Of a stretch of DNA of 64,000 bases, positions 35,343 through 59,387 are shown in pieces; the first letter of the stretch is position 1, and each line of letters starts with the position of its first letter. This DNA comes from Candidatus Aminicenantes bacterium (GTDB lineage: Bacteria > Acidobacteriota > Aminicenantia > Aminicenantales > Aminicenantaceae). The position numbers and the translations under genes are program-made. Where the stretch lies: the NCBI GenBank assembly GCA_016783445.1, contig JADHWO010000004.1, positions 11,212 through 75,211 on the forward strand. Direction: 5' to 3'. The notes under the pieces are model-generated. The model was not told the DNA's origin. It was given only the letters and a program-made list of their open reading frames with translations, and made no database searches.

Positions 35343-36443
35343 TTATCTCACTTTTAGAAAAGATTCTAGTTTTTCCTTTTTTAGATTAAAAAGTTCGGAT
35401 AGTTTTTCTACAGTGATTATCTTCTTCTGATAAGCTTCAAGAGCTACTCTTTTAAACCGGGAAGAGAAGAGAATCCCTCCTTTCCCTTTTATCAGTTCCT
35501 TCTCCTCAGAAAACTTCCCAAAAAAAGCCTCCCCATGAGTAGATGAGGCAAGCTTCTGGAACTCCTCAAATTTTGTCGGGGAAATGAATTCTAAATCCTT
35601 AAGCACTTGAATTATTGCGAGAGTTCCAACACCAAAATAATTCCTGAGATAAAGAACATCCGCAAAATTTAACTTTTTTTTAAACAGATCTTTGTTAATT
35701 ATTTCTTTAACCTTTGATGGGGGGACTAAAAAACGAAGAACAAATGTCTGGGCAAACTTTTCGCGAGGATGGTAAAGAGATACATACTCATTTATGAATA
35801 TATCCGGATTATCGATAACAGGGCCAATATTTCTATCCTTGAGAAAATGGCAGTATTCATGAGCTGCTGTGAAGATTTGTTGTCCAAGAGACTGGATGCT
35901 GTTTACCAGAGCAAAAGCAGCTCCCTCTATTTCAAAATAGATAAATACACCTGAGATTTTGGATTTCTCCGGAATGGGCTGTCTCACAATATGTAAGCCA
36001 TTAAGTTCAAGCACCGAGAAAACATCCCTGATAGGCCCATTTCCAAATCCAAGCCTGTTTCTTTCTTCATCTGCCATTCTCTCAGCCGATGTGTGTGTGT
36101 AAAGCGGGGCAAGCTCAAGACGGCGTCCGGTCAATTCCTCAAGATTGCTGTACTCTTCACAAAACTTTTTGAACTTCCTCAACTCCCCTCTCGCTTTTTT
36201 ATCCAGGCTCTCTTCCTGAAGAAGCACATTAAAAGCCTCCTCTTTTTCTTTTAAAAAGTAAGAGGCATCTTTTTTAAAGTAATTAGCAAGAGTGGTTAAA
36301 GTGTCAAGGCTTGGCATTCTTTTTCCCAGCTCCAGGAGTGAGATGAATTTGCTTGATAAGCCTACGGCCTTGGCAAGAGCTTCCTGTGTAAGGCCAATAT
36401 CCTCTCTTTCTCTTCTAAGTTTTGTTCCCAGGATTCCAGGCAT
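35343..36443 (-). CDS. XRE-family HTH transcriptional regulator fused to an ImmA/IrrE-family (DUF955) metallopeptidase domain
   Basis: 366 aa; N-terminal LRREREDIGLTQEALAKAVGLSSKFISLLELGKRMPS (Cro/C1 HTH); central HEYCHFL HExxH motif in an ImmA/IrrE-like region. Confidence 0.75.
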   Translation of the reverse strand: MPGILGTKLRREREDIGLTQEALAKAVGLSSKFISLLELGKRMPSLDTLTTLANYFKKDASYFLKEKEEAFNVLLQEESLDKKARGELRKFKKFCEEYSNLEELTGRRLELAPLYTHTSAERMADEERNRLGFGNGPIRDVFSVLELNGLHIVRQPIPEKSKISGVFIYFEIEGAAFALVNSIQSLGQQIFTAAHEYCHFLKDRNIGPVIDNPDIFINEYVSLYHPREKFAQTFVLRFLVPPSKVKEIINKDLFKKKLNFADVLYLRNYFGVGTLAIIQVLKDLEFISPTKFEEFQKLASSTHGEAFFGKFSEEKELIKGKGGILFSSRFKRVALEAYQKKIITVEKLSELFNLKKEKLESFLKVR

Positions 36444-37064: not shown

Positions 37065-40000
37065 ATGAGAAAAACAACTTTATTAATTTTTTTATGCCTT
37101 GGTATAGTCACGTCAAATTTTGCTATCGATGATGCTCGGCTGCTGAGGTTCCCTGACATAAATAAAGACCTGATCGTTTTTGTCTATGCCGGAGACATCT
37201 GGTCTGTTCAAGCAGCAGGAGGAGCAGCAAAAAAACTCACGTCTCACGAAGGGATGGAGCTATTTCCTAAAATATCACCAGACAGCAGGTGGATAGCATT
37301 TTCTGCTGAATATTCAGGTTCCCGGCAGGTCTTTATCATGCCCATCACAGGTGGAATCCCAACACAGCTCACCTACTACAATGATGTAGGAATGATGCCG
37401 CCAAGAGGTGGTTTTGACTATCAGGTTCTTGACTGGACGCCTGACAGCCAGAAAATTCTGGTCAGGGCAAACAGGACTCCATACGGACAAAGAAGAGGAA
37501 AATATTTTCTTGTGAGTATTGATGGTGGATTTGAGACTCCCCTTCAGATACCAGAGGGAGGAGGAGGAACCTTTTCTTCGGACGGGAAAAAAATCACTTA
37601 CACTCCAATTGGCAGAGAATTCAGAACCTGGAAGAGATACCAGGGAGGAATGGCCCAGGATATATGGACTTATGATCTTGAAAAAGCCGTATCAAAAAGA
37701 TTGACGACATTCCCTGGAACCGACCAGCATCCCATGTGGTATAAGGATAAAATTTACTTTGTTTCGGATAGAGACTTAACCTTAAATATTTATTCTTATG
37801 ATCTGGCTACAGAAAAGATCGAAAAAATTACAGGTCACTCAGAATACGATGTTCTCTGGCCTTCGGGTGAAAACGGGCTTGTTGTTTATGAGAATGGAGG
37901 TTACATCTACAAATTAAATATCCATACAAACGAGAATCAAAGGATACAGGTCAACATCAATTATGACAGCCCTTATGTTATGCCCTATTTTAAAAATGTT
38001 AAGGAAAATATAACAAGCTTTGACATATCCCCTTCTGGAAAAAGAGCAGTATTCGAAACTAGAGGGGATATATTCACAGTTCCTGCAAAGGAAGGAATTA
38101 CATACAATCTGACTGACACTCAAGGAGTAAGGGAAATTTTCCCTGCATGGTCCCCTGACGGGCAATTTTTAACGTACTACTCGGATAAAACCGGTGAATA
38201 CGAGATTTACCTCATGGACAGGAGTAAGGATAATGCTGTCACTCAACTCACAGAAGGAAGCGAGATATGGCGGTATCCCCTTGTGTGGTCTCCTGACAAC
38301 TCAAAGGTTCTTTTCTCAGACAGGAATCAGGATTTACAGATCCTGGATATCAAAACTAAAAACATTACATATGTGGATAAAGCCCGCCGTTTTGATATCA
38401 CAGATTATGACTGGTCTCCTGATTCCAAGTGGGTAGTTTATACAAAATACAGTGATAACACTCAAGATGCGGTTTGGGCTTATTCCTTGGACAAGGGAAA
38501 AACCTTCCAGCTAACGAATGATATGTTCATAGATTTTTCCCCTGTCTTTTCAACTTGTGGAAAATACATATTTTTCCTCTCAGACAGGAGCTTCAACCTG
38601 AATTTTTCAAGCTTTGAATTCGATTATATTTTCAGGGAATCAACTAATATTTATGCTGTCCCCTTAACAGAAGCCGTGCCTCCTCTCTTTAAAGATAAAA
38701 ATGACCAGGAGGAGGTCAAAAAGGAAAAAGCAGAAAAAGAAACAAACTCCAAAAAAGAAGCGAAAAAAACATCCAAGACAGAGGAAGAAAAGGCACCTTC
38801 AGTCCGGATAAATTTTGAAGGAATAAACGAAAGGATCGTATCCTTCCCCTTAAAACCCGGGGACTACAGAAATCTTACTGCTGTAGAGGGTGGGGTTCTT
38901 TATGTCAAAGATGGCGAATTACACATGTTTAAGATCGAAGATAAGAAAGATTCAGTGATCATAAAGGGAATATCTGGTGGAGCACTTTCGGCAAATAGAA
39001 AAAAGATTCTTTACCGTGCCAGGCAAAAATATGGAATCATCGATTTAAAACCCGATCAGAAGGTTGGAGCCGGAGAGCTAAATCTTTCCGACTTAACAAT
39101 GAAGATAGAACCTCTAAAAGAATGGAAACAGCTTTTTAATGACGGATGGAGAATCTATAGAGACTGGTTCTACGTAAAAAATCTACATGGAGTTGACTGG
39201 CAGAAGATGAAAGTAAAATACGGCCAGCTGGTTCCTTACTTAAGTCACAGGGCTGACCTCGATTTTATTTTTGGAGAGCTTGTCGGAGAGCTGAATACCG
39301 GACACTGCTACATCAACTGGGGAGACTTTCCAAGAGTTAAAAGGGTTGAAGGAGGACTTTTAGGTGCCGAGCTTAAAGTTGACGAGAAATCCTTAAGATA
39401 CATCATCAGCAAAATTTACAAAGGAGAAAACTGGAACGAAAGAACAAGGTCTCCCTTAACCGAACAGGGAATCAATGTGAAGGAGGGCGATTACCTCATC
39501 AGTCTCAACGGCCAAAATATCACCACAAAAGACAATCCTTACAAATTTCTTGAAAACACAGTCGGAAAAAGGATACCTATCGTTGTGAATTCTAAGCCTG
39601 TTGAGAAAGGAGCAAGAGAGTTCCTGATAAAGCCAATCCAGAGCGAGCTGAACCTTTTTTACATGGATTGGGTGAATTCAAGAAGAGAAATGGTGGATAA
39701 ACTCTCAAAAGGGAAAATAGGCTACTTCCATGTTCCCAATACCTCTGTTGAGGGAAACAGGGAACTGTTTAAAGGCTTTTATGCTTTTAGAAACAAGGAT
39801 GCACTGATCATTGACGAAAGATATAACGGAGGCGGTTTTATTCCTGATGTCATGACAGAACTCCTGACAAGAAAAATCTTAAGTTACTGGGGAAGGAGAG
39901 GTTTGATTCCAAGCCAGACTCCAGGTGCAGCTCACGAGGGGCCAAAAGTCATGCTCATCAATCACTATTCTGCTTCTGGCGGCGACGCTTTCCCCTACTA

Positions 40001-40331
40001 CTTCAAAAAGAACAAACTGGGAACTCTTATCGGGACTAGAACCTGGGGAGGACTTGTCGGATTGTCAGGCAATCCGGCCCTGGCTGATGGAGGTTATACT
40101 GCAGTTCCTACATTTGGTTTTATAAACACAGAAGGAAATTGGGCAGTAGAAGGAGTTGGAGTCTATCCGGATATAGAAGTGTATGACCGGCCAGAGCTTG
40201 TGGCCAAAGGAGAAGATCCATGTATAAAAAAAGCTGTCGAAGTCCTTCTTGAAGAGCTTAAAAAGAATCCTCCGAAAAAAATAAAAAAGCCCGAAGATCC
40301 TGACCGCTCGAAGCGGATAAAGAAAAAGTAA
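37065..40331 (+). CDS. Tricorn protease homolog (beta-propeller domains plus PDZ plus S41 C-terminal peptidase), secreted
   Basis: 1088 aa; signal peptide; repeated WSPD propeller motifs; charged KE-rich linker; C-terminal region with tricorn/S41 hallmarks (HVPNTSVEGN, IDERYNGGG, SASGGDAF). Confidence 0.8.
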   Translation: MRKTTLLIFLCLGIVTSNFAIDDARLLRFPDINKDLIVFVYAGDIWSVQAAGGAAKKLTSHEGMELFPKISPDSRWIAFSAEYSGSRQVFIMPITGGIPTQLTYYNDVGMMPPRGGFDYQVLDWTPDSQKILVRANRTPYGQRRGKYFLVSIDGGFETPLQIPEGGGGTFSSDGKKITYTPIGREFRTWKRYQGGMAQDIWTYDLEKAVSKRLTTFPGTDQHPMWYKDKIYFVSDRDLTLNIYSYDLATEKIEKITGHSEYDVLWPSGENGLVVYENGGYIYKLNIHTNENQRIQVNINYDSPYVMPYFKNVKENITSFDISPSGKRAVFETRGDIFTVPAKEGITYNLTDTQGVREIFPAWSPDGQFLTYYSDKTGEYEIYLMDRSKDNAVTQLTEGSEIWRYPLVWSPDNSKVLFSDRNQDLQILDIKTKNITYVDKARRFDITDYDWSPDSKWVVYTKYSDNTQDAVWAYSLDKGKTFQLTNDMFIDFSPVFSTCGKYIFFLSDRSFNLNFSSFEFDYIFRESTNIYAVPLTEAVPPLFKDKNDQEEVKKEKAEKETNSKKEAKKTSKTEEEKAPSVRINFEGINERIVSFPLKPGDYRNLTAVEGGVLYVKDGELHMFKIEDKKDSVIIKGISGGALSANRKKILYRARQKYGIIDLKPDQKVGAGELNLSDLTMKIEPLKEWKQLFNDGWRIYRDWFYVKNLHGVDWQKMKVKYGQLVPYLSHRADLDFIFGELVGELNTGHCYINWGDFPRVKRVEGGLLGAELKVDEKSLRYIISKIYKGENWNERTRSPLTEQGINVKEGDYLISLNGQNITTKDNPYKFLENTVGKRIPIVVNSKPVEKGAREFLIKPIQSELNLFYMDWVNSRREMVDKLSKGKIGYFHVPNTSVEGNRELFKGFYAFRNKDALIIDERYNGGGFIPDVMTELLTRKILSYWGRRGLIPSQTPGAAHEGPKVMLINHYSASGGDAFPYYFKKNKLGTLIGTRTWGGLVGLSGNPALADGGYTAVPTFGFINTEGNWAVEGVGVYPDIEVYDRPELVAKGEDPCIKKAVEVLLEELKKNPPKKIKKPEDPDRSKRIKKK

Positions 40332-40446
40332 CCAGCGACTCATAAATAAGATAACTTACATGGATAATCGCCAAAGGCCAGGGTAAAACGTAGATAAGTT
40401 ACTGTTCTTAAATTAAGCTGAAAGAGAAAATTCCAAGGAAAGTCTT

Positions 40447-41439
40447 TTACATTTCCACATTGAAGCCAAGGTCTAGGCTTTTTGCGCGGCGCAGTACGAG
40501 CTCGGCAACAGCCACATCCTGAACAGCCAATCCCACTGATTTGAAGAACGTTGATTCTCCTTCTGACTCACGACCCGGAATTTTTCCTGCTGCCACCTCT
40601 CCAATTTCTCCGTAAATATGCTGCTCTGAAATAAGTCCTCCTTCTATAGAAATAATCAAATCTCCTGCTTCAGCAAGACTTGCCTCACGAGAATCCACAA
40701 CTACCTTGGAGCGAACTACAGTCCGGGCAGGAATTTCCTGCATTTCCGGTGTATAAGAGCCGATACCATTTATATGAACACCTGGTTTGAGGTCTTCATC
40801 ATTAAACACAGGTTTACTAGAGGTCGTAGCTGCACAAATAACATCAGCCTCACAGACAGCCTGTTTTGGTGTTTTTGCTATAAAAATATTTTCAGGAATT
40901 GGGTTGCCTCGAGTTTTCATCTCTTTAACATAAGCCAGTGCGGTTTTTAGCTCCACATCATAGACCCAAACCTCTTCTATAGGTCTAACCGTACAAATTG
41001 CTTCTAACTGAGTTCGGGATTGAGTCCCTGCTCCAAAAATAGCTGCTACCCGGGAATCCTGGCGCGACAAAAGATCCGTTGCAACACCAGATGCAGCTCC
41101 TGTACGTAGCGCTGTAAGATATGTTCCATCCATAATAGACAGTGGTCGACCGGTTTCTGTTTCCACTACAATCACAACAGCATGAATTGTAGGCAGTCTT
41201 TTACTCTGATTATTGGGAAAAATCGAGACAATTTTAGCTCCCATTGCCTCACTTTCAGCTAAATAGGCGGGCATAAAAAGGGTCACTCCGCTTTGCTTCT
41301 TCACCTGAATCTGCGTCCTTAACGGCACGTCTGCTTTGCCACTTGAAAGCTGTATAAACGCTTTTTTTACAGTTTTTATGGCTTCGGCCATATTTACAGC
41401 TTGAGCCACATCATTTCTGGATAGTATTTTTAGTCTCAT
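40447..41439 (-). CDS. Ornithine cyclodeaminase / mu-crystallin family enzyme (possible ketimine or delta1-pyrroline-2-carboxylate reductase)
   Basis: 330 aa; OCD/mu-crystallin Rossmann fold (IFGAGTQSR). Confidence 0.75.
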   Translation of the reverse strand: MRLKILSRNDVAQAVNMAEAIKTVKKAFIQLSSGKADVPLRTQIQVKKQSGVTLFMPAYLAESEAMGAKIVSIFPNNQSKRLPTIHAVVIVVETETGRPLSIMDGTYLTALRTGAASGVATDLLSRQDSRVAAIFGAGTQSRTQLEAICTVRPIEEVWVYDVELKTALAYVKEMKTRGNPIPENIFIAKTPKQAVCEADVICAATTSSKPVFNDEDLKPGVHINGIGSYTPEMQEIPARTVVRSKVVVDSREASLAEAGDLIISIEGGLISEQHIYGEIGEVAAGKIPGRESEGESTFFKSVGLAVQDVAVAELVLRRAKSLDLGFNVEM

Positions 41440-41443
41440 TGGC

Positions 41444-42598
41444 TTACACCACCCTTTTTTCTCCTTTATGTTTTATGTCTCTTTGCCTTCTAAAAGTAAA
41501 CGGTTTTAAATCAAAATCAGTACGACCATCAAGGATGAGCTCAGAAAGGATAATACCTACTGCAGGCCCTTGTTGAAAACCATGACCCGAAAAACCAATA
41601 GCACAAAAGAATCCATCGAAACCAGGAATCGCTCCAATAAACGGATTTCCATCAGGAGTGATTGAGTATAGTCCTCCCCAACCTCGAAGGATTTCAGCTT
41701 TTTCCAGGATAGAGGCCCGGTGAATTGCAGCCTCAATAACTTCCTCCAGGAACTCTCGGTCCACATGGAGATTAAAGCTTGAAGGCTCATTTTGGTCACT
41801 CATGCCCATAAGAAGACCCGGATCTTCACCCCGGAAGTAAAATGTAACATCCTGGTCAATAATCATTGGTACAGGCTTTGGAATCACATCAAAGGATTTT
41901 GTCATAAAGACTTGGCGGCGGTAGGGTTTTACTGGAATGTTTATTCCAGCCATCCCTGCAACTTCACTTCCCCAGGGCCCGGCTACATTAACGACAATAG
42001 ACGAAGAGATGGCCCCCTTACTTGTCTCAACTCCTTGAACTCTGCCGTTTTTTATCTTGATGCCGGTCACCTCTGTTTTTTCTTCAATCCGGACACCAAG
42101 CTTCCTGGCACAATTAGCAAATCCCATCGCAACAAGATAAGGATCTGCATAGCCATCTTCTGGACCAAGAGTTCCACCTTTTAAATCTTCAACATTTAAG
42201 TAAGGCCATCGGTGTTTGATCTCCTTTGGGGATAGCACCTCCACAGGAACGCCATACTGGCGCTGTGTTTCAACATCGGATAAAAAATTTCTCCAGGTCT
42301 CTTCCTTCTGGGCAAGAAAAAGATAGCCTACCTGGCGGAAGTTTATATCAACACCAAATTCCTCTTTAAAATGCTCAAACAGCTGTACAGACTTTTGTAC
42401 CAAACGAATATTCGCAGGATGAGAGAATTGCTGGCGAATACCCCCAACACTCAATCCCGTTGAAGCCTGGGCCAAAAGCTCTTTTTCCAGGATAACGACA
42501 TCCGAGACACCACTTTTAGCCAGATAATAAGCTGTGCATACTCCCATTATGCCGCCGCCGATGATGGCTACCTCGGCTGTATTTTTCCAGTCTATCAT
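41444..42598 (-). CDS. FAD-dependent oxidoreductase of the D-amino-acid oxidase / sarcosine oxidase beta (DAO) family
   Basis: 384 aa; N-terminal VAIIGGGIMGVCTAYYLAK FAD-binding motif; DAO-family length and layout. Confidence 0.75.
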   Translation of the reverse strand: MIDWKNTAEVAIIGGGIMGVCTAYYLAKSGVSDVVILEKELLAQASTGLSVGGIRQQFSHPANIRLVQKSVQLFEHFKEEFGVDINFRQVGYLFLAQKEETWRNFLSDVETQRQYGVPVEVLSPKEIKHRWPYLNVEDLKGGTLGPEDGYADPYLVAMGFANCARKLGVRIEEKTEVTGIKIKNGRVQGVETSKGAISSSIVVNVAGPWGSEVAGMAGINIPVKPYRRQVFMTKSFDVIPKPVPMIIDQDVTFYFRGEDPGLLMGMSDQNEPSSFNLHVDREFLEEVIEAAIHRASILEKAEILRGWGGLYSITPDGNPFIGAIPGFDGFFCAIGFSGHGFQQGPAVGIILSELILDGRTDFDLKPFTFRRQRDIKHKGEKRVV

Positions 42599-42656
42599 CT
42601 TAAATATAATTCACAAGCCGTTCTCGAACAGCCTGTATTGATCCCAGCTTTTTCGA

Positions 42657-44918
42657 TTACGTTTTTGAGCGGACCATGAGGACAGAGGCAGAAGCCTGAT
42701 TGGCTACCTTGTCAGGAATTGAACCAAAAAGCCACCGTCGGAGTATCCACTCCTCTGATGCACCCATTACAATAAGATCATGCTCTCCAGAGATACGGAC
42801 AATTGCCCGGGCAATATCTGTATCAATAACAACACATATATCAGCCGGAACTCCAGCCTCGGTGAGTCTATCACGGACAAAGTCTTCGGCTTCCCCTTGA
42901 AAGAGCCGGATGCTTTCCCTGTCAAAATCAGAGCTGGCAGCTGATGGACCCCGTCCAACCTGCACATTTAATGCTGTGATTGAAGCCTTCCACTCAGAAG
43001 CTAAATCATTGGCCAGCTGAAGTCCAAGCCGCGCATGCGAACCTCCACTGATAGGAACCAGAATGCGTCGGACATTCTGTAAACCTCGATCTTTAAGAAC
43101 CAGTACATTTCCCTTTGCAATCTTCAGCACGCCTGCAACACAGGTCCGTTGGGTTCTGAGCATACGAACTTCACCCCGCCAGCCCATTACAATAAGGTCA
43201 GGCTGCTCCACATCAGCTATGCTGAGGATAGCCGAGGTAACACTGTGAGCCACTATAGCAGTGGCTCGAGCTTTAACTCCTTTTTCGGAGGCATGATAGG
43301 ATGCGGTATCCAGAAGTGTTTTCTTCTCCCATCGCCTTTTCTCATATTCTATCCGCCCCGCTTCAAGAGGTGTTTGTGCCGGGACATTCACAACGTGAAT
43401 CAATTGAAGATGAGCTCTGCGTTTTTTAGCCAATGCAGTGCTCAGCATCAGCAACGAATGCTCGGTATCCGGATTAGCCAAAGGAACAAGAATCACCGGA
43501 AGCTCTTCGCGACGTGAGACAAGGTATTCCTTAGCTCTTACTACAAGAGGTTTAACAACTTTTTTTTGCCATAATATATTCGAGGCACCAACCAGTTGTG
43601 TTCCTTTACGTAAGAAAATTATATACCAGAGAAAACTCGCAGCAATAATCATATATCCAATGATCAGAGAAACTCGACTTGTATTAACGATGACAAAAAT
43701 GCATCCCAGCAATCCCAAAACCGGAACAAGCGGATATCCAGGGGTCCGAAAACTGGGTTTATACCAATCCAGCTTAGCGTATCTCATAATCATACATGCT
43801 AAAGTTATAAGGGAATAGAGTACAAGGCTCAGGAAACCGGCGACTTCAGCCAGAAGCTCAAGATGACCCCCGAGAAACACCAGTACAAGCATGGTCAGGC
43901 CACCGGTCACTGCGATCGACCGGTAAGGTGTCCTGAAGCGGGAGTGAATCCGATTGAGCCAGTCAGGCATGAGCTGGTCTCTACCCATGGCAAAAGAAAT
44001 TCTCGACGCTGCCATTACACTGGCATTTGCTGAAGATACTGTAGCCAGAATACCCCCGACAAGCACCAGAATATACCCTCCTCTGCCCATGAGATTCCTG
44101 GCAAGATCCATAAGCACAGTTTCATTGGCCATACTCGGATCGTTGTACTGCCTTAATCCCAGCATACAAAACACAACAGCACAATAGACAATAGTTACAA
44201 TCACAACAGAACCAACCAGAGCAAGAGGGAGATTTCTGTCTGGATTTCGGATTTCTTCAGAAATGGCAGAAATTTCAGCAAATCCCATAAAAGTGATGAA
44301 GAGAATCGGCAGGGTTATCAGCACACCAGAGAATCCAATCTCTGGAGGAATAAAGGGAGTTAATCTTTCAGGCTCTACAGAGAATAGTGCCCGTACAACA
44401 AATACCATCAGCACAAATAAAAGCATCGCGACAATAACGGTTTGAGTACGCCCTGTTTCTCTCGCTCCAATAAAGTTAAGCAGGCCGAGCAACGCTGTTA
44501 CAACAAGGGCAATCATAACAGGTGAAACACCTAAAGCATCACTCACATAGTGACCGAATCCAATCATATAGAAGGCGGATGCGAATATAAGGCTCAGCCA
44601 TAAAGCCCAGCCCATAATTGTGCCAATCAAAGGCCCAAATGCTCGGACCATGAATAAGTAGCCACCCCCAGCATAAGGCATTCCTGTGGACAACTCGGCC
44701 ATACAGAGAGCAACCAAGACTGAAACAAAGCCGCAGATGATAAATGATAATAATACGGCTGGTCCTGCTTTGCCTGCGACTATTCCAGGCAAAACAAATA
44801 TGCCTGCCCCGATCATCGTACCAACACCAACAGACAATGCCGCGCCAAAACCCAGGTCGCGAGCAAGCTTTATTTTAGAGTTCTCACTCGAGTTTCCGGC
44901 TTTACTGTTTTTCTTCAT
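42657..44918 (-). CDS. APC-superfamily amino-acid permease fused to two C-terminal universal stress protein (UspA) domains
   Basis: 753 aa; about 12 TM N-terminal region (GAGIFVLPG); C-terminal roughly 280 aa with two USP-like alpha/beta units (...LIVMGWRGE... and ...LIVMGASEE...). Confidence 0.75.
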   Translation of the reverse strand: MKKNSKAGNSSENSKIKLARDLGFGAALSVGVGTMIGAGIFVLPGIVAGKAGPAVLLSFIICGFVSVLVALCMAELSTGMPYAGGGYLFMVRAFGPLIGTIMGWALWLSLIFASAFYMIGFGHYVSDALGVSPVMIALVVTALLGLLNFIGARETGRTQTVIVAMLLFVLMVFVVRALFSVEPERLTPFIPPEIGFSGVLITLPILFITFMGFAEISAISEEIRNPDRNLPLALVGSVVIVTIVYCAVVFCMLGLRQYNDPSMANETVLMDLARNLMGRGGYILVLVGGILATVSSANASVMAASRISFAMGRDQLMPDWLNRIHSRFRTPYRSIAVTGGLTMLVLVFLGGHLELLAEVAGFLSLVLYSLITLACMIMRYAKLDWYKPSFRTPGYPLVPVLGLLGCIFVIVNTSRVSLIIGYMIIAASFLWYIIFLRKGTQLVGASNILWQKKVVKPLVVRAKEYLVSRREELPVILVPLANPDTEHSLLMLSTALAKKRRAHLQLIHVVNVPAQTPLEAGRIEYEKRRWEKKTLLDTASYHASEKGVKARATAIVAHSVTSAILSIADVEQPDLIVMGWRGEVRMLRTQRTCVAGVLKIAKGNVLVLKDRGLQNVRRILVPISGGSHARLGLQLANDLASEWKASITALNVQVGRGPSAASSDFDRESIRLFQGEAEDFVRDRLTEAGVPADICVVIDTDIARAIVRISGEHDLIVMGASEEWILRRWLFGSIPDKVANQASASVLMVRSKT

Positions 44919-45064
44919 GATAATAATTTTTGTTATCTATAAACTGCCCAACTCGTGAATTATTCAGGTTAATTAATCTGATTTATTATACATTTACGAA
45001 AAGATAAATTAACTCCTCGATATTTATCTGCAAGTGCAGAGTTACAACATCACTGAGTTTTTTA

Positions 45065-48000
45065 TTACCTGATTCTTATAGGGTAAGGAGGTCGCTTTAA
45101 TTTTATAGGTGGATTCTTCTTGAGCTCTTCCATAATAACTTCAATAGCCTTTTCCAGTTGAGGATCTCGTCCGGCAATCACATCAGCAGGCCACTGTTCA
45201 ACTTCAATATCCGGAGGAACTCCTACATTCTCAACGACCCAACCATTCTCTGTCCATATAGCCAGGTTTGGAGCAGAGACATAGCCGCCATCCATCAGGA
45301 TTGGAAATCCAAGGGTTCCTACCAGGCCGCCCCACGTTCTTTTTCCGATCAGTTTGCCAAGCTTGAATTTCCGGAACATCCAGGGAAGCAGATCACCTCC
45401 GGAACCGGCTGTCTCATCAATAAGCATAACCTTAGGACCTTGAATGGATGCACCTGGCGTTTTAAGATCAGCCCCATAACGCATGTGCCAGTAGCAGGTT
45501 AAAGGACGCCGCAAAATATCTATATAGTAGTCTGCAACTGAGCCGCCACCGTTAAACCTCTCATCAACAATGATGGCATCTTTGTTCACCTGGGGAAAGA
45601 AATACCGTTTGAAATAGGTGTGTCCCGTTGTTGTTGTATTTGGCACATAAACATAAGCCACCCGGCCATTTGTAGCCTTATCAACTTTTTTGAGGTTCCC
45701 CTCCACCCAGTCACGATTCCGTAGAGAGCTCTCGTCGCGAACAGGGACAACAAATACAGTACGTGAGCCTGCGCTGTTTGGATCCGGACCAACAGTTATT
45801 TCAATAAGTTTTCCCGCAGAATTTTCAAATAAACTGAAAATATTCTGCGGGGGGCGAAGTTCCTTCCCGCGTACAGCCAGGAGATATTCTCCCTTTTTAA
45901 CATCTACGCCTGGCTCAGTTAAGGGAGAACGAAGCTGGGGATTCCAGTTGAGACCGCCATAGACCTTTTTAAACCTGTAGCGGCCATTTTCTATAGAATA
46001 ATCGGCACCGAGCAAACCTCCGGGAACCTGTTTGGACAACGCAGGTGTGTCTCCACCTCCTACTCGATGGTGCCCTACAGCCAGTTCACTACACATCCAT
46101 TGAATCACCCGGTTGAGGTCTCCACGAGTTGCAACATGAGGAAGGAACACAGCGTATTTCTTTTGCATGGCCTCCCAGTCTGCACCGTGCATGTTTGTAG
46201 CATAGAAAAAATCGCGGTTAATTCGCCAGGCTTCATAAAAAATCTGTTGCCATTCAGCCCTTGGGTCTATACGTACTTCAATGGCATTAGTGTCGATCTT
46301 TCCCTGACCGGGCTTTATCTTTCCGGCTGCAGGTGCAATTCCCAGGGAATCACTGGAAATGTAGAGTATCTTTTTCTTATCGGCTGAAATTTCATACCCA
46401 TTAACTCCTGATAAAACAACTTCATCTTTACGTTTATTGAGGTCGTACATATGCAGCTTGGTTTCCCTTGCATAGGGTCCCCGGCTTCCCGAAGGTGCTT
46501 CAAGATAATAGAATTCTCCTGCCTTGCCGGCCTGAAGACTAAAATAGGCGCCAGCAGAAAGAGATAGAGCAAGTATTCGCTGATTGAGGCCATCAAAGTC
46601 TACAGAGAAAGCCTTTTCCGGCTTTGCTTTTTTCTTTTCAGGCTCTATCTTCTTTTCAGGTTTTTCTTTCTTTATCATCCCCTCTTCCTCGTCACTCTCC
46701 TTGGTAAGAGGTGATGGAACGTCCTTTTGCAGCACAGCAAGATAAATGGAACGTGTCATGCGCGTATCAGCATTTGACATGGCAAACCACTGTTTGACCG
46801 GCCCGGCATCAGTGGATGCAAAAAAGTAGAGATATTTACCGCTCTCATCAAAAGCAGGATCGCTGACATCACTCAGGCCATCTGTAACCACATAGGATTT
46901 ATCTTTTTCAAGAGAGTAGAGATAAACCTTCGAGATATAAGCTGCGGTATTCAGCGTGTAAACAATCCATTTGGAATCAGGGGACCAGGTAGACGTGATC
47001 GTCTTTGCACGTCTTGGCCCGAAGAGGTATTCAGACCCGATTTTCTTCGAGATCCCTGTTTTTAAATCTATCCAGTAGAGAGTCCAGGAGTTATCTGCAA
47101 AAGAAATTTTCTGGCTGTCTGGCGACCAGACCGGGGTGTCATAAAATCCAGTGCCTGTCAGCTTGAACTTTTTCACATCTCCCTTGCCGTCCTGGGTACT
47201 AACATGGAGCTCGTATTCACCAGACTCGTCTGAAAAGTAAGCAATGTTTTTTCCGTCAGGTGACCAGACTGGACTCCGTTCATGAGTGCCTGTTGTGTTT
47301 GTCAGGTTCCGGGGGTCTCCTTTTTCAGCCGGAACCGTGATTATCTCCCCACGAAATCCTAAAACAGCTCTTGCTCCGGAGGGAGAAATCGAAGCACCCC
47401 TTATATAACGGAATCCACTGACATAGCGGGGACGAACCTCAATCAAGTCGGCTGCTACACCAACAGTTAATTTCGTGCTCCGTGCATATGAGGGATTGAA
47501 GATGTGGAGATGCCCAGCCTGTTCGTAGATAATTTTCTCATTACCTGAAGAAGCACTAAGAACAGGAAAATCTTTATGGGAGGTGAGCTGCTTGATTTCT
47601 TTCGATTTTGTATCGAATGAAAAAATATTAAATTCTCCATTTCGATCTGAAAGAAAATATATCTTCTCCCCTATCCACATAGGATCAGTATCATTACAGC
47701 GGCCTTCAGGCTGAGGAATCTTTTCTACTGAGTAATCGCTAAAAGTGATAATCCAAATTGTGGAAACCGTTCCTCCTCGATAATTTTTCCACTGGCGAAA
47801 GCGTTCAGAGAGTGGAGTGTAAGCCATTTTACTGCCGTCAGGTGAGTATGTTGCCTTGTAAGCATTGGGAATTTTTAGGGATGTGGGAAGCCCGCCTTTA
47901 AGAGGCACAGTAAAAAGCTGCGTATACCGCCTTGTAAAAACATAACGGGGAGATATAAACAGCACTGAGGAGCCGTCCGGTGTAAAGCCGCGAACAATAT

Positions 48001-48346
48001 CATATCCCGGATGCCAGGTGAGCCGCCTCGGGACTCCACCATCAACAGGAACGACATAAACATCTGTGTTGCCATCATACTGGGCACTAAAAGCAATAAG
48101 TTTCCCGTCCAGTGAAAAAACAGGATTAGATTCTAAGCCTTGAGCTGTGGTCAAGCGCCGGACTCCTTTCCCATCAATATTAGCCACCCAGAGGTCTCCT
48201 GCATAACCAAAAGCTATATGGGTTTTGCTAATAGCGGGTTGACTTAAAAGTTTGGTATCGTTGATATTGATTTTACCAGCCAGGAAAACAGGCATGGCAA
48301 TTGTAAATACCAACACAAAAAAGATGAGATAAAAACTTCTTTTCAT
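45065..48346 (-). CDS. Second tricorn protease homolog (secreted), paralogous to 37065..40331
   Basis: 1093 aa; same architecture and motifs (WSPD repeats, KE-rich linker, YVPNTTTTGH, VDERFNGGG, TAGSGGDLLP), ends ...PYPIRIR. Confidence 0.8.
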   Translation of the reverse strand: MKRSFYLIFFVLVFTIAMPVFLAGKININDTKLLSQPAISKTHIAFGYAGDLWVANIDGKGVRRLTTAQGLESNPVFSLDGKLIAFSAQYDGNTDVYVVPVDGGVPRRLTWHPGYDIVRGFTPDGSSVLFISPRYVFTRRYTQLFTVPLKGGLPTSLKIPNAYKATYSPDGSKMAYTPLSERFRQWKNYRGGTVSTIWIITFSDYSVEKIPQPEGRCNDTDPMWIGEKIYFLSDRNGEFNIFSFDTKSKEIKQLTSHKDFPVLSASSGNEKIIYEQAGHLHIFNPSYARSTKLTVGVAADLIEVRPRYVSGFRYIRGASISPSGARAVLGFRGEIITVPAEKGDPRNLTNTTGTHERSPVWSPDGKNIAYFSDESGEYELHVSTQDGKGDVKKFKLTGTGFYDTPVWSPDSQKISFADNSWTLYWIDLKTGISKKIGSEYLFGPRRAKTITSTWSPDSKWIVYTLNTAAYISKVYLYSLEKDKSYVVTDGLSDVSDPAFDESGKYLYFFASTDAGPVKQWFAMSNADTRMTRSIYLAVLQKDVPSPLTKESDEEEGMIKKEKPEKKIEPEKKKAKPEKAFSVDFDGLNQRILALSLSAGAYFSLQAGKAGEFYYLEAPSGSRGPYARETKLHMYDLNKRKDEVVLSGVNGYEISADKKKILYISSDSLGIAPAAGKIKPGQGKIDTNAIEVRIDPRAEWQQIFYEAWRINRDFFYATNMHGADWEAMQKKYAVFLPHVATRGDLNRVIQWMCSELAVGHHRVGGGDTPALSKQVPGGLLGADYSIENGRYRFKKVYGGLNWNPQLRSPLTEPGVDVKKGEYLLAVRGKELRPPQNIFSLFENSAGKLIEITVGPDPNSAGSRTVFVVPVRDESSLRNRDWVEGNLKKVDKATNGRVAYVYVPNTTTTGHTYFKRYFFPQVNKDAIIVDERFNGGGSVADYYIDILRRPLTCYWHMRYGADLKTPGASIQGPKVMLIDETAGSGGDLLPWMFRKFKLGKLIGKRTWGGLVGTLGFPILMDGGYVSAPNLAIWTENGWVVENVGVPPDIEVEQWPADVIAGRDPQLEKAIEVIMEELKKNPPIKLKRPPYPIRIR

Positions 48347-48698
48347 AACAACCTCCTAATTTATAAATAAAGTGCAAAAAGAATAGCTTAATACATAATA
48401 TTTATAAAATGCAAAAAAAACTACTTCTTCGGAAGCATCTCTATTTCCGTGATAAAGAAACAGTCAGGCAAACTGATTTGATTGTTGAATATCATAAAAT
48501 CCCCTTCATTGTTCTTTTAAATAATGAATTTTAATATACAGAGTTTACTTAGGAATAACAACAATTTTTCTTTTTCTGGACTCTTGAGTTTGGTTATTAT
48601 AGAATTATTTTCCGTGCCAGGATGGGAAGGTAAAAGAAAAAGAGCTGTCACGTTATAATTATTGTTTTTTCATTAATCCTTTAAAAGGAGAGCTTAAG

Positions 48699-49163
48699 AT
48701 GAAAAGAAGAAACGCTCTGCTCACCTTAAGCTGTTTGGCCTTAGCAGGTCCAAATCTGTTTTCTTGTAAAAGAAGGAGTAAACAAATGAAAAAAGAAATC
48801 AAAACAGATAAAGCTCCAAAGGCAATCGGCCCCTATTCACAGGCTATAATGGCTAATGGTCTTATCTTTGCTTCAGGTCAAATCGCGATTAATCCCTCTA
48901 CAGGAGAGCTAATCGCAGGAACTATTGAAGAAGAGACCCGGCTTGTGTTGAATAATCTCAAAGCAGTTCTTGAAGCCGCAGGAAGTTCCTTCGATAAAGT
49001 CATTAAATGCACGGTATTTCTCCAGAACATGGATGACTTCAGCCGTATGAATGCAGTGTACGGCGAATTCTTCAAACCTCCATATCCTGCCCGTGCAGCC
49101 GTTCAAGTAGCCCGCTTGCCCAAAGATGTCAAAGTAGAAATTGAAGCGATTGCTATACAATAA
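48699..49163 (+). CDS. RidA/YjgF-family enamine-imine deaminase with an N-terminal signal or lipoprotein-like peptide
   Basis: 154 aa; strong SD (AAAGGAGAG) before the first Met; residues about 40-154 match the RidA fold (KAPKAIGPYSQA..., ...ARAAVQVARLP). N-terminal MKRRNALLTLSCLALAGPNLFSC is signal-peptide-like. Confidence 0.7.
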   Translation: MKRRNALLTLSCLALAGPNLFSCKRRSKQMKKEIKTDKAPKAIGPYSQAIMANGLIFASGQIAINPSTGELIAGTIEEETRLVLNNLKAVLEAAGSSFDKVIKCTVFLQNMDDFSRMNAVYGEFFKPPYPARAAVQVARLPKDVKVEIEAIAIQ

Positions 49164-49701: not shown

Positions 49702-50550
49702 ATGAAATTAAAAAAAAGACTACCCAAAGATCAAAACTTTGAACAGGTGAGAAAACATTATGAAATAGAAAAGTCTATTGCAGAGAAACTAAAAAAGGCT
49801 ACTAGAGAAGAGAGAAAAAAAATTTTCCCTATTATGTATCATGAGCTCTTTGCCAATGTTCCCGACCATCCTCGGCTTATGGCAAAAAAGGGTGCTGATA
49901 AAATCCAGTCTTCTAATAGACAGAAATTCCAGCTTGTCAAAGAATACCTAAATAATTCAATTGTTTTTGTTGAATTTGGTCCTGGCGATTGCCATTTCGC
50001 CTCCAGTGTTTGTAAATATGTAAAAAAAGCATATGCTGTAGACATTTCTGACCAAAGAGAAAAAAACAGCCATTTCCCATCAAATTTTGAATTGATAATC
50101 TATGATGGATATAACTTAAATATAGAAAGAGGTTCAGTTAATGTTGTGTTTAGTGATCAGTTTATAGAGCATCTTCATCCTGAAGATGTCGAATATCATT
50201 TTTTATTGGTAAAAAGGATTCTTCGCGATGGTGGTCTGTACATATTCAGAACACCCCATGCTTTTTTTGGGCCTCATGATATATCTAAGTACTTCTCAGA
50301 CGAGCCAGAAGGATTCCACCTGAAAGAATGGACTTATTCAGAAATAGGAGAGATAATAAAAAAACTGAATTTTTCTTCCTGGAGTGGATTTTGGCGAATA
50401 AATAGTAAGTTAAATAAGAATTATAAAAAATTCCCTTTTTGTTATTTTAAAACAGCAGAAACAATACTTAAAGGTATGCCAAAAAATTCCAAAAGGTATC
50501 TCTCAAGACTTTTTCTTCCTCTAAAACTGTTCATGATCGCAGTTAAATAA
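49702..50550 (+). CDS. Class I SAM-dependent methyltransferase (putative)
   Basis: 282 aa; VEFGPGDCHF (motif I-like GxGxG) and acidic motif II (AVDISD); otherwise unassigned. Confidence 0.5.
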   Translation: MKLKKRLPKDQNFEQVRKHYEIEKSIAEKLKKATREERKKIFPIMYHELFANVPDHPRLMAKKGADKIQSSNRQKFQLVKEYLNNSIVFVEFGPGDCHFASSVCKYVKKAYAVDISDQREKNSHFPSNFELIIYDGYNLNIERGSVNVVFSDQFIEHLHPEDVEYHFLLVKRILRDGGLYIFRTPHAFFGPHDISKYFSDEPEGFHLKEWTYSEIGEIIKKLNFSSWSGFWRINSKLNKNYKKFPFCYFKTAETILKGMPKNSKRYLSRLFLPLKLFMIAVK

Positions 50551-50810
50551 AATTTATACACTGATGTTTGGAAAAAAAATATGATGTACATATGGGAACT
50601 GTTCTATTTTCCTCTAATTTTTTGAATTCAATTTAACAATATAATTTTAACTAAAAACAATGGAACCGTCCCTAATTTTTATAAATAAAAAACAGAGTTG
50701 TGCCCATTTTTTTGCCACACTGCCATATTCTAACCTTTTGAAGTGTTGAAAGTCTGATCCCGCTGAATTTTCTTGACTTTGTTCTACCCTTGAAGAAAAA
50801 TATATCTTTG

Positions 50811-52811
50811 ATGAAGAATGAAGTGCGGATTGGAGTTGACACAGGGGGAACATTCACTGATTTTACTATCTCCATCAACGGAAAAATCGAAATAAAAAAA
50901 ATCCCTTCCACTCCAAAAAATCCTTCTCTGGCTATTCTTGAAGGTATAGATGAATTCCTGAGAAAAGAACTATCTCCTGTGGTAATTCACGGGACAACCG
51001 TTGCAACAAATTCTCTCCTCGAAAGGAAAGGAGTACGAATTGCCCTGATCACAACCAGGGGCTTCGAGGATATTCTGTTTATCGGGCGCCAGACGAGGCG
51101 AGAACTCTACAGCTTGAGAGGAGAGCGCAGAACACCACTCCTCCCCCGCCGTCTTTGTTTCGGGCTTGAGGAGAGAATCTCAGCATCAGGAAAAATCGAA
51201 ACAAAAATCTCCCTTTCCGAACTCCAAGAAATCCTCGAAAAAATAATAAAATTAAAAACCGAAGCCGTGGCTGTTTCCCTTATCAATTCTTACGCAAATA
51301 ATTCTCACGAAAAAACCATCTCCAGAGAATTAAAAAAGAAAAAAATCCTGGCTTCTGTCTCAAGCGAGATACTCCCGGAACATCGTGAATACGAAAGAAC
51401 AGCCATAACCGCTGTTAATGCTTATCTCATGCCTGTTGTAAGCCAGTATTTAGCGGACCTAGAGAAAAAAATGCAGCATGTTGAACTTCGAATCATGCAG
51501 TCTAATGAAGGATATATCACTCCGGCGAGGGCAAAATCAGAACCTATAAGAACAGCTCTCTCAGGCCCTGCAGGAGGAGTAGTTGGAGCATTTCACCTGG
51601 CAAGAGCGGCTGGATTTCAAAATATCATCTCTTTTGATATGGGAGGGACTTCCTCTGATGTTTCCCTTATAGACGGTAAGATCAGAAGAACAAATGAAAG
51701 TAAAATCGGAGATTTTCCCATCCGAATCCCTATTATCGATATTCACTCGGTCGGGGCTGGAGGTGGCTCCATTGCCTATGTAGACAGAGGTGGCTCTCTC
51801 AGAGTTGGGCCTAAGAGTGCAGGAGCTGAACCAGGGCCGGCTTGTTACGGGCACGGAAACTTCCCGACTGTCACAGATGCCAATCTGGTTTTAGGCCGGC
51901 TGGTCCCGGAGTTTTTCCTTGGTGGCAAAATGAAAATCCTTCCAAAAAGGAGCCATGAGGTCCTGGAGAGGCTTGCTAAAAAAATCAACAAATCTTTTCT
52001 TGAAACAGCTGCAGGTATCATCAAAATTGCCAATGCAAACATGGAAAAAGCCATCCGGGTGATTTCAATTGAAAGGGGTTTTGACCCAAGAAATTTCGCT
52101 CTCTTCTCCTTTGGAGGAGCCGGGGGGATGCACGCAGTTGATATTGCCTCTCACCTTAAAATACCCAGAGTGATTGTTCCTAAAAACGCTGGAGTACTCT
52201 CTTCCCTCGGGCTTCTTATGGCCGATTCTATCAAGGACTATTCTAAATCCATATTGAAGACAGCAGAGAAATTAAAAAAAGAGGAACTCGAAAAGTTTTT
52301 TGTCGAATTAGGAGAAAGAGGCGTCAGAAATATGAAAGAGGAGGGTTTCAGTAAGGAGGAAACTTTTATCTATCCTTTCCTGGACCTCAGGTATCTCGGT
52401 CAATCCTATGAAATAACCATTCCTTACAGGTACACAAAGAGCCCCGGCTTATCCTTTGTATCCGATTTTCATAAGGCTCACAAAAAACTCTATTCTTACC
52501 AGCACGACCAAAGACCTGTAGAGATCGTCAATATTCGGATCAAAGCTGTGGGAAAAAGTAAAAAAATCAGGCTTAAAAAGCTTCCCCTCAAAGGTGCCAA
52601 ACCTGAAAAGGCTTTTCTAAAAAAACAATCCATCTATTACAACGGGAAAAGCTACCAAGCCTCAGTGTTTAATAGATCTCTTCTCTCCCCCGGGAACAAA
52701 ATGAACGGCCCAGCTCTTATCGCAGATATAGAGTCAACAATATTCCTTCCCCCTTCCTGCACATCTAAAGTTGACGGCTTGCTCAATTTGCTTATCCAAA
52801 AGGTGGAGTAA
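50811..52811 (+). CDS. hyuA: Hydantoinase/oxoprolinase family protein, A subunit (HyuA)
   Basis: N-terminal RIGVDTGGTFTDF motif and overall HyuA architecture. Start set at the ATG (MKNEV...) rather than the upstream TTG at 50790. Confidence 0.8.
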   Translation: MKNEVRIGVDTGGTFTDFTISINGKIEIKKIPSTPKNPSLAILEGIDEFLRKELSPVVIHGTTVATNSLLERKGVRIALITTRGFEDILFIGRQTRRELYSLRGERRTPLLPRRLCFGLEERISASGKIETKISLSELQEILEKIIKLKTEAVAVSLINSYANNSHEKTISRELKKKKILASVSSEILPEHREYERTAITAVNAYLMPVVSQYLADLEKKMQHVELRIMQSNEGYITPARAKSEPIRTALSGPAGGVVGAFHLARAAGFQNIISFDMGGTSSDVSLIDGKIRRTNESKIGDFPIRIPIIDIHSVGAGGGSIAYVDRGGSLRVGPKSAGAEPGPACYGHGNFPTVTDANLVLGRLVPEFFLGGKMKILPKRSHEVLERLAKKINKSFLETAAGIIKIANANMEKAIRVISIERGFDPRNFALFSFGGAGGMHAVDIASHLKIPRVIVPKNAGVLSSLGLLMADSIKDYSKSILKTAEKLKKEELEKFFVELGERGVRNMKEEGFSKEETFIYPFLDLRYLGQSYEITIPYRYTKSPGLSFVSDFHKAHKKLYSYQHDQRPVEIVNIRIKAVGKSKKIRLKKLPLKGAKPEKAFLKKQSIYYNGKSYQASVFNRSLLSPGNKMNGPALIADIESTIFLPPSCTSKVDGLLNLLIQKVE

Positions 52812-52815
52812 CTAT

Positions 52816-58382: not shown

Positions 58383-58383
58383 A

Positions 58384-59343: not shown

Positions 59344-59387
59344 AAAAATAAGATAAGAGCAAAGAACGGCTATAAGGAGAGGTCATT

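Follow-up and report, generated by a model that had tools for sequence, protein, structure and literature searches.

In a 64,000-nucleotide stretch of Candidatus Aminicenantes DNA (contig JADHWO010000004.1 of assembly GCA_016783445.1; hereafter the window), a 12-kb segment encodes two tricorn-type proteases (tricorn-1 and tricorn-2), an APC-type amino-acid permease with Usp domains, a DAO-family flavoenzyme, a homolog of the ornithine cyclodeaminase (OCD)/mu-crystallin family and a RidA protein. The evidence presented here made it about evenly balanced whether these genes form a lineage-specific island for scavenging of peptides and amino acids, built stepwise at a conserved locus for amino-acid catabolism, in which an imino-acid enzyme pair acts on what is taken up. 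In such an island, exported tricorn proteases, located in the periplasm or beyond, would cut peptides outside the cytoplasm and the APC permease would import the released amino acids. The OCD homolog is predicted to reduce Δ1-pyrroline-2-carboxylate (Pyr2C), and probably also piperideine-2-carboxylate (Pip2C), with NADH to L-proline or L-pipecolate, and the flavoenzyme, a putative secondary-amine dehydrogenase, would most likely oxidize this product onward to Δ1-pyrroline-5-carboxylate (P5C). With a dehydratase, the full route would run from trans-3-hydroxy-L-proline (T3LHyp) via Pyr2C and L-proline to P5C. Aminicenantes have been reported to specialise in peptide degradation (PMC6469976), and the island, in a window that also encodes M16 and M20 peptidases and a formiminotransferase-cyclodeaminase (FTCD), fits this known protein-eating lifestyle.

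Gene Order and Stepwise Assembly of the Locus

All six open reading frames (ORFs) that an earlier note on this DNA had described were present (Table 1), and every domain call was backed by Pfam and NCBIfam. The same note had proposed a three-gene minus-strand operon of permease, flavoenzyme and OCD homolog. The co-direction of these genes was borne out. Tricorn-2 is also encoded on the minus strand, so that the stretch from 48346 to 40447 holds four co-directional genes, separated by 146, 58 and 4 bp (order: tricorn-2, permease, flavoenzyme, OCD homolog). The close spacing of the permease and flavoenzyme genes proved to be species-specific. Tricorn-1 is convergent with the OCD gene. RidA, said to follow the second tricorn gene, is instead located on the plus strand, divergent from tricorn-2 across 352 bp.

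The window sequence recurs in several metagenome assemblies, and the nearest homologs of its proteins are annotated as Candidatus Aminicenantes. Because the gene order recurs in at least 20 independent contigs with 72–99% protein identity, the arrangement is not a chance artefact of a single assembly. Three sets of loci were used for comparison: 80 loci from species-representative genomes, fetched with an alignment of OCD homologs and onto which the window proteins were mapped (OCD-anchored set), the surroundings of RidA homologs, and 47 metagenome loci anchored on the permease.

Three forms of the locus were found. In the first (L086, L088), a regulator with HTH_3 and Peptidase_M78 domains (HTH_M78) adjoins the genes RidA-HyuA-HyuB-Nramp. 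In the second (11 loci; permease 71–77% identical), the Usp-permease is inserted divergently beside RidA. In the third, tricorn-2 is placed between RidA and the permease, and the DAO-OCD pair and tricorn-1 are placed between the permease and the regulator. This last form comprised the window, L117 and about 18 further contigs with the tricorn-2/permease pair, including L007 and L008, with DAO-OCD visible only in contigs that reach far enough. The HTH_M78 regulator is the boundary gene of the locus in all variants, and adjoins RidA or the permease in loci without the tricorn and enzyme genes. RidA-HyuA-HyuB-Nramp is the older unit and already adjoined the permease when the tricorn genes were still absent; the tricorn genes and the juxtaposition of permease and enzymes are later additions, in one subclade only.

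Spacing between the permease and DAO genes was 58–62 bp only in the window species. In relatives it was 0.6–2.9 kb, with an opposite-strand gene for a metallo-beta-lactamase-fold protein and genes for DUF4438 and LiaF-TM proteins in the interval. Because the close spacing is confined to the window species, the "three-gene operon" is the product of a recent deletion. A weak terminator-like hairpin remains at 42612-42637, in the 58-bp gap between permease and flavoenzyme.

Base composition (GC content 0.41–0.47 per gene, 0.43 for HyuA and 0.40 for the window) gave no clear sign of foreign origin. A search for mobile-element signatures (repeats, tRNA-like boundaries) around the 12-kb segment found no flanking direct repeats; the sole repeat matches were paralog-derived inverted matches between the two tricorn genes. 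Counts of promoter-like and terminator-like sequences were not above those in shuffled controls, and the same held for promoter-like matches in the tricorn-2/RidA intergenic region.

A possible, though doubtful, alternative is that no integrated system exists and that the locus is a mosaic of general periplasmic tricorns, an older, separate unit of permease and RidA-HyuA-HyuB-Nramp, and an independent DAO-OCD cassette that came to lie beside them by chance. Several observations favour a mosaic: nested variants of the locus exist without the later parts; L006, as close as L007 and L008, has DAO-OCD beside the HTH_3/M78 regulator without tricorns, permease or RidA; L101 has tricorn-2 and the permease without DAO-OCD; and relatives have unrelated genes between permease and DAO, while a hairpin is found in the 58-bp gap. 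L006 and L101 also weigh against an island, as does the fact that no linkage of the tricorn genes and permease to the enzyme pair is seen beyond one subclade; a functional coupling of proteases, permease and enzymes is suggested by adjacency only. Against a mosaic, at least 10 contigs keep the full arrangement, with protein identities as low as about 72%, the inserted genes all share a theme of peptide and amino-acid use and, in the window species, the intervening genes were deleted, which left permease and enzymes co-directional and 58 bp apart.

A Predicted Imino-Acid Enzyme Pair

The OCD homolog matched OCD_Mu_crystall (PF02423, E = 2e-79). Its closest solved structure was 6t3e, the Thermococcus litoralis Pyr2C reductase LhpI (TlLhpI; 296.7 bits, E = 2e-87), as compared with 202.9 bits for Archaeoglobus fulgidus alanine dehydrogenase (AlaDH), 98 bits for lysine cyclodeaminase and 86.7 bits for Pseudomonas putida OCD (1u7h). 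Residue positions discussed in PMC4141209 were transferred through the 6t3e alignment. The substrate tetrad R41-K69-R112-D308, the GAGTQS motif (136–141) and the NAD-specific D161 were all present. L54, Y229 and M233 occupy the cyclodeaminase-specific positions, and Y229 and M233 were invariant in 12 OCD homologs; the corresponding residues are L52/V224/A228 in TlLhpI, E56/D228/K232 in P. putida OCD and R52/D219/K223 in AlaDH AF1665 (PMC4141209). With 6t3e as its closest structure and E56/D228/K232 replaced, the homolog fell outside the true cyclodeaminases and with the Pyr2C reductases, in agreement with the earlier note, and it is predicted to be a Pyr2C (or Pip2C) reductase of the TlLhpI type. 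An archaeal-type alanine dehydrogenase was also considered and rejected: R52-D219-K223 was not matched, and the score with TIGR02371 was 284 bits, below the cut-off of 409.

The flavoenzyme matched DAO (PF01266, E = 2e-78), has no signal peptide and carries the N-terminal ADP-binding motif IIGGGIMG. Its best match in the PDB, over its full length (residues 8–369), was 1y56_B (248.9 bits, E = 9e-73), an entry that bears the name "sarcosine oxidase" but represents the beta subunit of the Pyrococcus horikoshii L-proline dehydrogenase (L-ProDH) complex. Dimethylglycine dehydrogenases (185 bits), sarcosine oxidase beta (144 bits) and the D-arginine dehydrogenase DauA (3nyc, 66.5 bits) scored lower. 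The D-amino-acid dehydrogenase model NF001933 gave 117.8 bits (cut-off 383), and NF040813 covered residues 10–47 only. The earlier note had placed the flavoenzyme in the D-amino-acid/sarcosine-oxidase family; it groups with L-ProDH beta, dimethylglycine dehydrogenases and sarcosine oxidase beta, not with D-amino-acid dehydrogenases or oxidases, and appears closest to a DAO-family FAD dehydrogenase of the L-ProDH beta-subunit type. The public gene call starts this ORF 17 codons late (367 aa) and so loses the FAD-binding motif GGGIMG; orthologs share the start of the 384-aa form.

Among the genes of the island, only the DAO-OCD pair is widely conserved. A DAO-family gene was found within 2.5 kb of the OCD gene and on the same strand in 50 of the 80 OCD-anchored loci (Aminicenantes, Acidobacteriota and Chloroflexota). 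In Aminicenantes and some Anaerolineae it is located directly upstream of OCD (52–76% identity), and in many Chloroflexota downstream (about 42–45% identity), often beside genes for Liv-type ABC transporters. Tricorn-1, tricorn-2, permease and RidA were present only in the two closest loci of this set, L007 and L008.

Directly downstream of DAO-OCD, six Aminicenantes loci (OCD 56–64% identical to that of the window) encode a proline-racemase-family protein with a Cys...Thr signature (STMCGH, DRSPTGTG). For the protein from L017, the best PDB match was 6r76/6r77, the T. litoralis T3LHyp dehydratase LhpH (2e-135). A cluster of LhpI, LhpH and L-ProDH is known from archaea (PMC4141209, PMC4364671), and since DAO-OCD is joined by an LhpH-like gene, the Aminicenantes cassette reproduces the three enzymes of that cluster gene for gene. 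Close homology, active-site residues and synteny together suggest that the translationally coupled, cytoplasmic DAO-OCD pair is an imino-acid module.

Some results speak against this assignment. All NCBIfam equivalog scores for the OCD homolog and the flavoenzyme were below their cut-offs. The flavoenzyme keeps an R-x-W motif (LRGW), which is characteristic of beta subunits dependent on an alpha subunit and described for those that share FMN with it (PMC4575208), and no alpha-like gene (Fer2 and Pyr_redox_2) was found in the window or the 47 permease-anchored loci. Neither the window nor the loci of the tricorn-bearing subclade contained a T3LHyp dehydratase, a P5C dehydrogenase or an alpha subunit. 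BjOpnDH2, although closely related to L-ProDH beta, shows no activity on L-proline (PMC4575208). As this precedent illustrates, a substrate cannot be read from homology to L-ProDH beta, and the stereochemistry and substrate given here for the flavoenzyme are probable ones.

A redox racemisation, in which the flavoenzyme would be a D-proline or D-lysine dehydrogenase that makes Pyr2C or Pip2C and the OCD homolog would reduce these to the L-imino acid, had been suggested in the earlier note. It is possible, but it is not the better-supported reading and was judged rather unlikely. The Pyr2C-reductase type of the OCD homolog is compatible with it, and consecutive steps would neatly explain why the two genes are translationally coupled (4-bp gap) and stay together in 50 of 80 loci, also where a dehydratase is missing. 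Watanabe et al. raised the same possibility for LhpI clusters without LhpH (PMC4141209), and T. litoralis grows on D-proline. However, the nearest characterised relatives of the flavoenzyme act on L-proline, dimethylglycine and sarcosine, and D-arginine and D-amino-acid dehydrogenases and the Thermoproteales D-proline dehydrogenase model matched far more weakly or at the Rossmann end only. Moreover, a T3LHyp dehydratase already supplies Pyr2C in the six Aminicenantes loci, and the permease shows nothing specific for D- or imino acids.

Catabolism of N-methyl amino acids, sarcosine or opines, with the flavoenzyme demethylating or cleaving an N-substituted amino acid and the OCD homolog acting as an N-methyl-L-alanine- or opine-type dehydrogenase, is improbable. 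The relationship of the flavoenzyme to sarcosine oxidase beta and dimethylglycine dehydrogenases would be in line with it, as would the N-methyl-L-alanine dehydrogenase activity of TlLhpI, the existence of OCD-family opine dehydrogenases and the closeness of opine dehydrogenase beta to L-ProDH beta (PMC4575208). Yet the flavoenzyme lacks a folate-binding/aminomethyltransferase domain, alpha and gamma subunits are missing, and synteny with a T3LHyp dehydratase points to a pyrroline ring. Formation of L-proline by a true ornithine cyclodeaminase and its subsequent oxidation by the flavoenzyme, an idea suggested by eight other Aminicenantes loci in which the pair is located downstream of carbamate kinase and ornithine carbamoyltransferase (OTCase) genes, was rejected as highly improbable: the E-D-K residues proposed to be necessary for cyclodeamination are replaced by L54/Y229/M233, of which the last two are invariant in homologs, matches to OCD were weak (1u7h, above; NF005762, 148 bits, cut-off 350), and a search of the 64-kb window for an OTCase or a carbamate kinase gene found neither. 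A proline-racemase-family gene was likewise sought in the window and not found.

The gene order in those eight Aminicenantes loci is P-loop protein, carbamate kinase, OTCase, a 720-aa K/E-rich protein, DAO and OCD. The protein of about 720 aa (L017:6607-8778; also in L010, L021, L023, L028, L030, L037 and L043) has no Pfam match and is encoded between OTCase and the DAO-OCD(-LhpH) cassette, with carbamate kinase and a 435-aa P-loop protein upstream. In some Acidobacteriota loci (L038, L042, L073), OCD homologs of this subfamily are flanked by DHDPS-family and LarA-like (lactate-racemase family) genes; as DHDPS-family deaminases of Δ1-pyrroline-4-hydroxy-2-carboxylate are known, this arrangement may, by analogy, be another hydroxyproline-type variant. 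An alpha-like protein of about 740 aa (Fer2_4, Pyr_redox_2 and BFD), of the alpha-subunit type of heteromeric proline, opine and hydrogen cyanide dehydrogenases, is encoded in Chloroflexota-type or related loci (L016:5778-7985, L026:5168-7393 and L036; partial matches in L045 and L046). In L016 its gene lies between two DAO paralogs, upstream of OCD. It was absent from all Aminicenantes loci examined.

Exported Tricorn-Type Proteases

Both tricorn proteins matched PD40, Tricorn_C1, PDZ_Tricorn and Peptidase_S41 in Pfam, and Tricorn_N and Tricorn_2nd in precomputed matches; in a pairwise alignment they were 37% identical end to end. The K/E-rich linker that had been reported for both was found at about residues 545–585. 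Tricorn-2 aligned with Thermoplasma acidophilum tricorn (1n6d/1k32) with E = 1e-85 and, in the 1n6d alignment, kept equivalents of Ser965, His746 and Glu1023 (AGSGGD, VGH and VVEN). For tricorn-1, the catalytic Ser, His and Glu (SASGGD, TGH and AVEG) were located through pairwise alignment with tricorn-2. The Arg131/Arg132 clamp for the substrate C-terminus was not conserved, the RR segment being in an alignment gap relative to 1n6d, and neither was Ser745.

The signal peptides of tricorn-1 (MRKTTLLIFLCLGIVTSNFA, encoded at 37065-37124) and tricorn-2 (MKRSFYLIFFVLVFTIAMPVFLA) combine a K/R n-region with a strongly hydrophobic core (maximum of 3.3 over 10 residues on the Kyte-Doolittle scale), and the predicted cleavage site is preceded by small residues. 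This layout is retained in the orthologs from L007 and L008, with cleavage sites ALA, AFA and LQA. The signal peptides proposed for the two proteases were thereby confirmed as classical Sec type and kept in orthologs, and on these sequence features both proteins were accepted as Sec-exported. Genes for OmpA and Omp85 in the neighbourhood point to a diderm envelope. A literature search on Aminicenantes tricorn proteases found nothing.

The Usp-Fused Permease

The permease matched AA_permease, AA_permease_2 and two Usp domains in Pfam, the latter encoded at about 42657-43511. Its core (residues 1–440) contains 12 hydrophobic segments, predicted to be transmembrane (TM), and its closest structures were those of GkApcT (6f34/5oqt). 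In NCBIfam, matches to generic amino-acid transporter and BcaP models were all below equivalog cut-offs. Uptake of D- or cyclic amino acids, as once supposed for this protein, drew no backing from a generic GkApcT-like transporter that gives no indication of its substrate. Fusions of Usp domains to transporters are widespread. A regular-expression scan for the strict Usp ATP motif G-2x-G-9x-G-[S/T] had no match in either domain; the second has G-AS-E-x9-GS. Because the strict motif is absent from both domains, the proposal of nucleotide gating of transport is without support.

RidA and Its Export Signal

RidA scored 182.5 bits with TIGR00004 (cut-off 106.25), and the active-site arginine of the PAR motif is present, with YPARAAVQVARLP in the sequence. 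A 29-residue N-terminal signal of the twin-arginine (Tat) type is encoded at 48699-48785. Among the 120 closest RidA clusters, 112 sequences (93 distinct) had the same extension, with the pattern M-[K]-R-R-x-A-L-hydrophobic-x-L-[S/G]-x-hydrophobic-A-L-x-G-P-x-L-x-S. R3 and R4 were invariant in the 93 distinct sequences, substitutions at hydrophobic positions were conservative and codons changed synonymously, the second Arg being encoded by either AGA or CGA; these three features indicate protein-level selection on a Tat-type signal. A Tat signal was taken to require an RR without variation, followed by at least 13 hydrophobic residues free of charge and by a c-region of basic character; in the window protein, residues 5–22 are uncharged and the c-region is KRRSKQ. 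A lipobox-like L-[FIV]-S-C occurred in 10 of the 93 sequences, including that of the window (LFSC). The earlier proposal of an export signal on RidA thus held up, the extension being, by these sequence features, translated, selected and of export type.

Two in-frame starts, ATG 48699 and ATG 48786, are each preceded by an AGGAG-type ribosome-binding site, and NCBI annotates only the short, 125-aa RidA, without the export signal. The codons of the near-invariant R26-S27, AGG-AGT, double as the Shine-Dalgarno sequence for the internal start; because of this overlap, exported and cytoplasmic forms may both be made, which suggests that one gene yields two RidA forms. A phylum-wide Tat-type signal on an otherwise canonical RidA, possibly with dual initiation, might be the one feature of the locus that a specialist would not expect. 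As a precedent for an extracytoplasmic Rid protein, a Rid-type subunit of a Chlamydomonas periplasmic L-amino-acid oxidase is cited in PMC5053998; no others were found in the literature searched.

RidA had been linked to the redox pair as a scavenger of imine by-products. Its conserved operon partners are instead HyuA/HyuB and Nramp: the order RidA-HyuA-HyuB-Nramp was found in L086, L088 and 11 further loci (L097 and L102 are among the carriers) and is a conserved operon in Aminicenantes. The best NCBIfam match of HyuA/HyuB was to caprolactamase CapA/CapB, far below cut-off, and they are predicted to be an ATP-dependent lactamase-type pair. Between RidA and HyuA, the window carries a methyltransferase gene of low GC content (0.327) that was seen only in the window species (L117, L135) and was absent from other loci. 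Because of this restriction, it is probably a recent insertion.

A bolder scheme would have a housekeeping-type RidA of Aminicenantes exported via Tat and quenching reactive periplasmic imines and enamines, with the internal start perhaps giving a cytoplasmic copy, and would make the locus a funnel to glutamate from peptide-derived amino acids with a five-membered ring, namely proline, hydroxyproline and pyroglutamate. It is unlikely; if true, tricorns, permease, the ATP-dependent lactamase HyuAB, Pyr2C reductase and proline-dehydrogenase-type flavoenzyme would act as one.

Feature Positions and Surrounding Genes

Table 1. Positions of the island genes and neighbouring features in the window.
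Feature	Position	Strand	Length	Evidence
HTH_3 + Peptidase_M78 (ImmA/IrrE-like) regulator	35343-36443	-		Pfam
Tricorn-1	37065-40331	+	1088 aa	ORF, Pfam
OCD/mu-crystallin homolog	40447-41439	-	330 aa	ORF, PF02423
DAO-family flavoenzyme	41444-42598	-	384 aa	ORF, PF01266
APC permease with two Usp stretches	42657-44918	-	753 aa	ORF, Pfam
Tricorn-2	45065-48346	-	1093 aa	ORF, Pfam
Tricorn-2/RidA divergent intergenic region	48347-48698	strandless		sequence
RidA	48699-49163	+	154 aa	TIGR00004, Ribonuc_L-PSP
HyuA/HyuB (ATP-dependent hydantoinase/oxoprolinase/caprolactamase family) + Nramp	50790-55582	+		Pfam
Methyltransferase	49702-50550			
Asp/Glu-type racemase	56312-57022	-		
Thr/Ser dehydratase, second OCD-family paralog, aminotransferase	57390-60515			
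Two M16 genes, FTCD, M20 peptidase	9074-13556 and 19368-20822			

Beyond HyuA/HyuB and Nramp, a gene for an Asp/Glu-type racemase is found just upstream of a threonine/serine dehydratase gene (PRK06815, above cut-off), which is followed by a second OCD-family paralog and an aminotransferase (below cut-off). The second paralog is 28% identical to the first and EutC/cyclodeaminase-like, and the grouping resembles EutB/EutC-type pairs. An SbnA/SbnB assignment was rejected on the grounds that the pyridoxal-phosphate enzyme scored above cut-off as a Thr/Ser dehydratase and the paralog is EutC/cyclodeaminase-like. Elsewhere in the window, two adjacent M16 (insulinase-type) genes, FTCD and an M20 peptidase are consistent with a lifestyle of peptide and amino-acid catabolism.

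Significance and Comparison With Known Systems

Aminicenantes, uncultured but abundant in sediments, are believed to feed on detrital protein. Several proposals that can be tested follow from the island for these organisms: a route for proline and hydroxyproline residues, with which ordinary peptidases and aminotransferases cope poorly; a bacterial counterpart of the archaeal hydroxyproline pathway across Aminicenantes, Acidobacteriota and Chloroflexota; tricorn-type proteases that act outside the cytoplasm; and an export signal on RidA that the public 125-aa annotation discards. None of these overturns current understanding. Every component of the island belongs to a known family, and its enzyme core adds a bacterial example to a pathway known from archaea, bacteria and mammals.

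With the T. acidophilum tricorn protease (MEROPS S41B), the window proteins share the domain order of two beta-propellers, C1, PDZ and S41 catalytic domain. In the archaeon, tricorn is a cytosolic hexamer or capsid that acts after the proteasome, whereas the window tricorns carry Sec signal peptides, occur as two diverged paralogs, have an inserted K/E-rich linker and do not keep the clamp and Ser745.

The window OCD homolog has in common with T. litoralis LhpI the substrate tetrad and the NAD-specific Asp, and in both proteins the cyclodeaminase positions are occupied by non-polar residues. The flavoenzyme is closest to the beta subunit of archaeal L-ProDH (1y56_B), whose alpha, gamma and delta subunits are not encoded at the locus. 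In contrast to the archaeal hydroxyproline cluster, the dehydratase is present in sister Aminicenantes loci and not in the window locus, the host is a bacterium from metagenomes of non-thermal, sediment-type origin, and the pair is found beside exported tricorns and a Usp-fused permease.

The permease shares the 12-TM APC core of GkApcT/MjApcT-type transporters and, with fusions of Usp domains to transporters, its two C-terminal Usp domains; it differs in that neither domain has the strict motif of ATP-binding Usp proteins (MJ0577 type). As in RidA/YjgF proteins (TIGR00004), the score of the window RidA exceeds the family cut-off and the PAR arginine is kept; to this common pattern it adds a conserved 29-residue Tat-type signal, while still keeping an internal start that has a Shine-Dalgarno sequence to itself.

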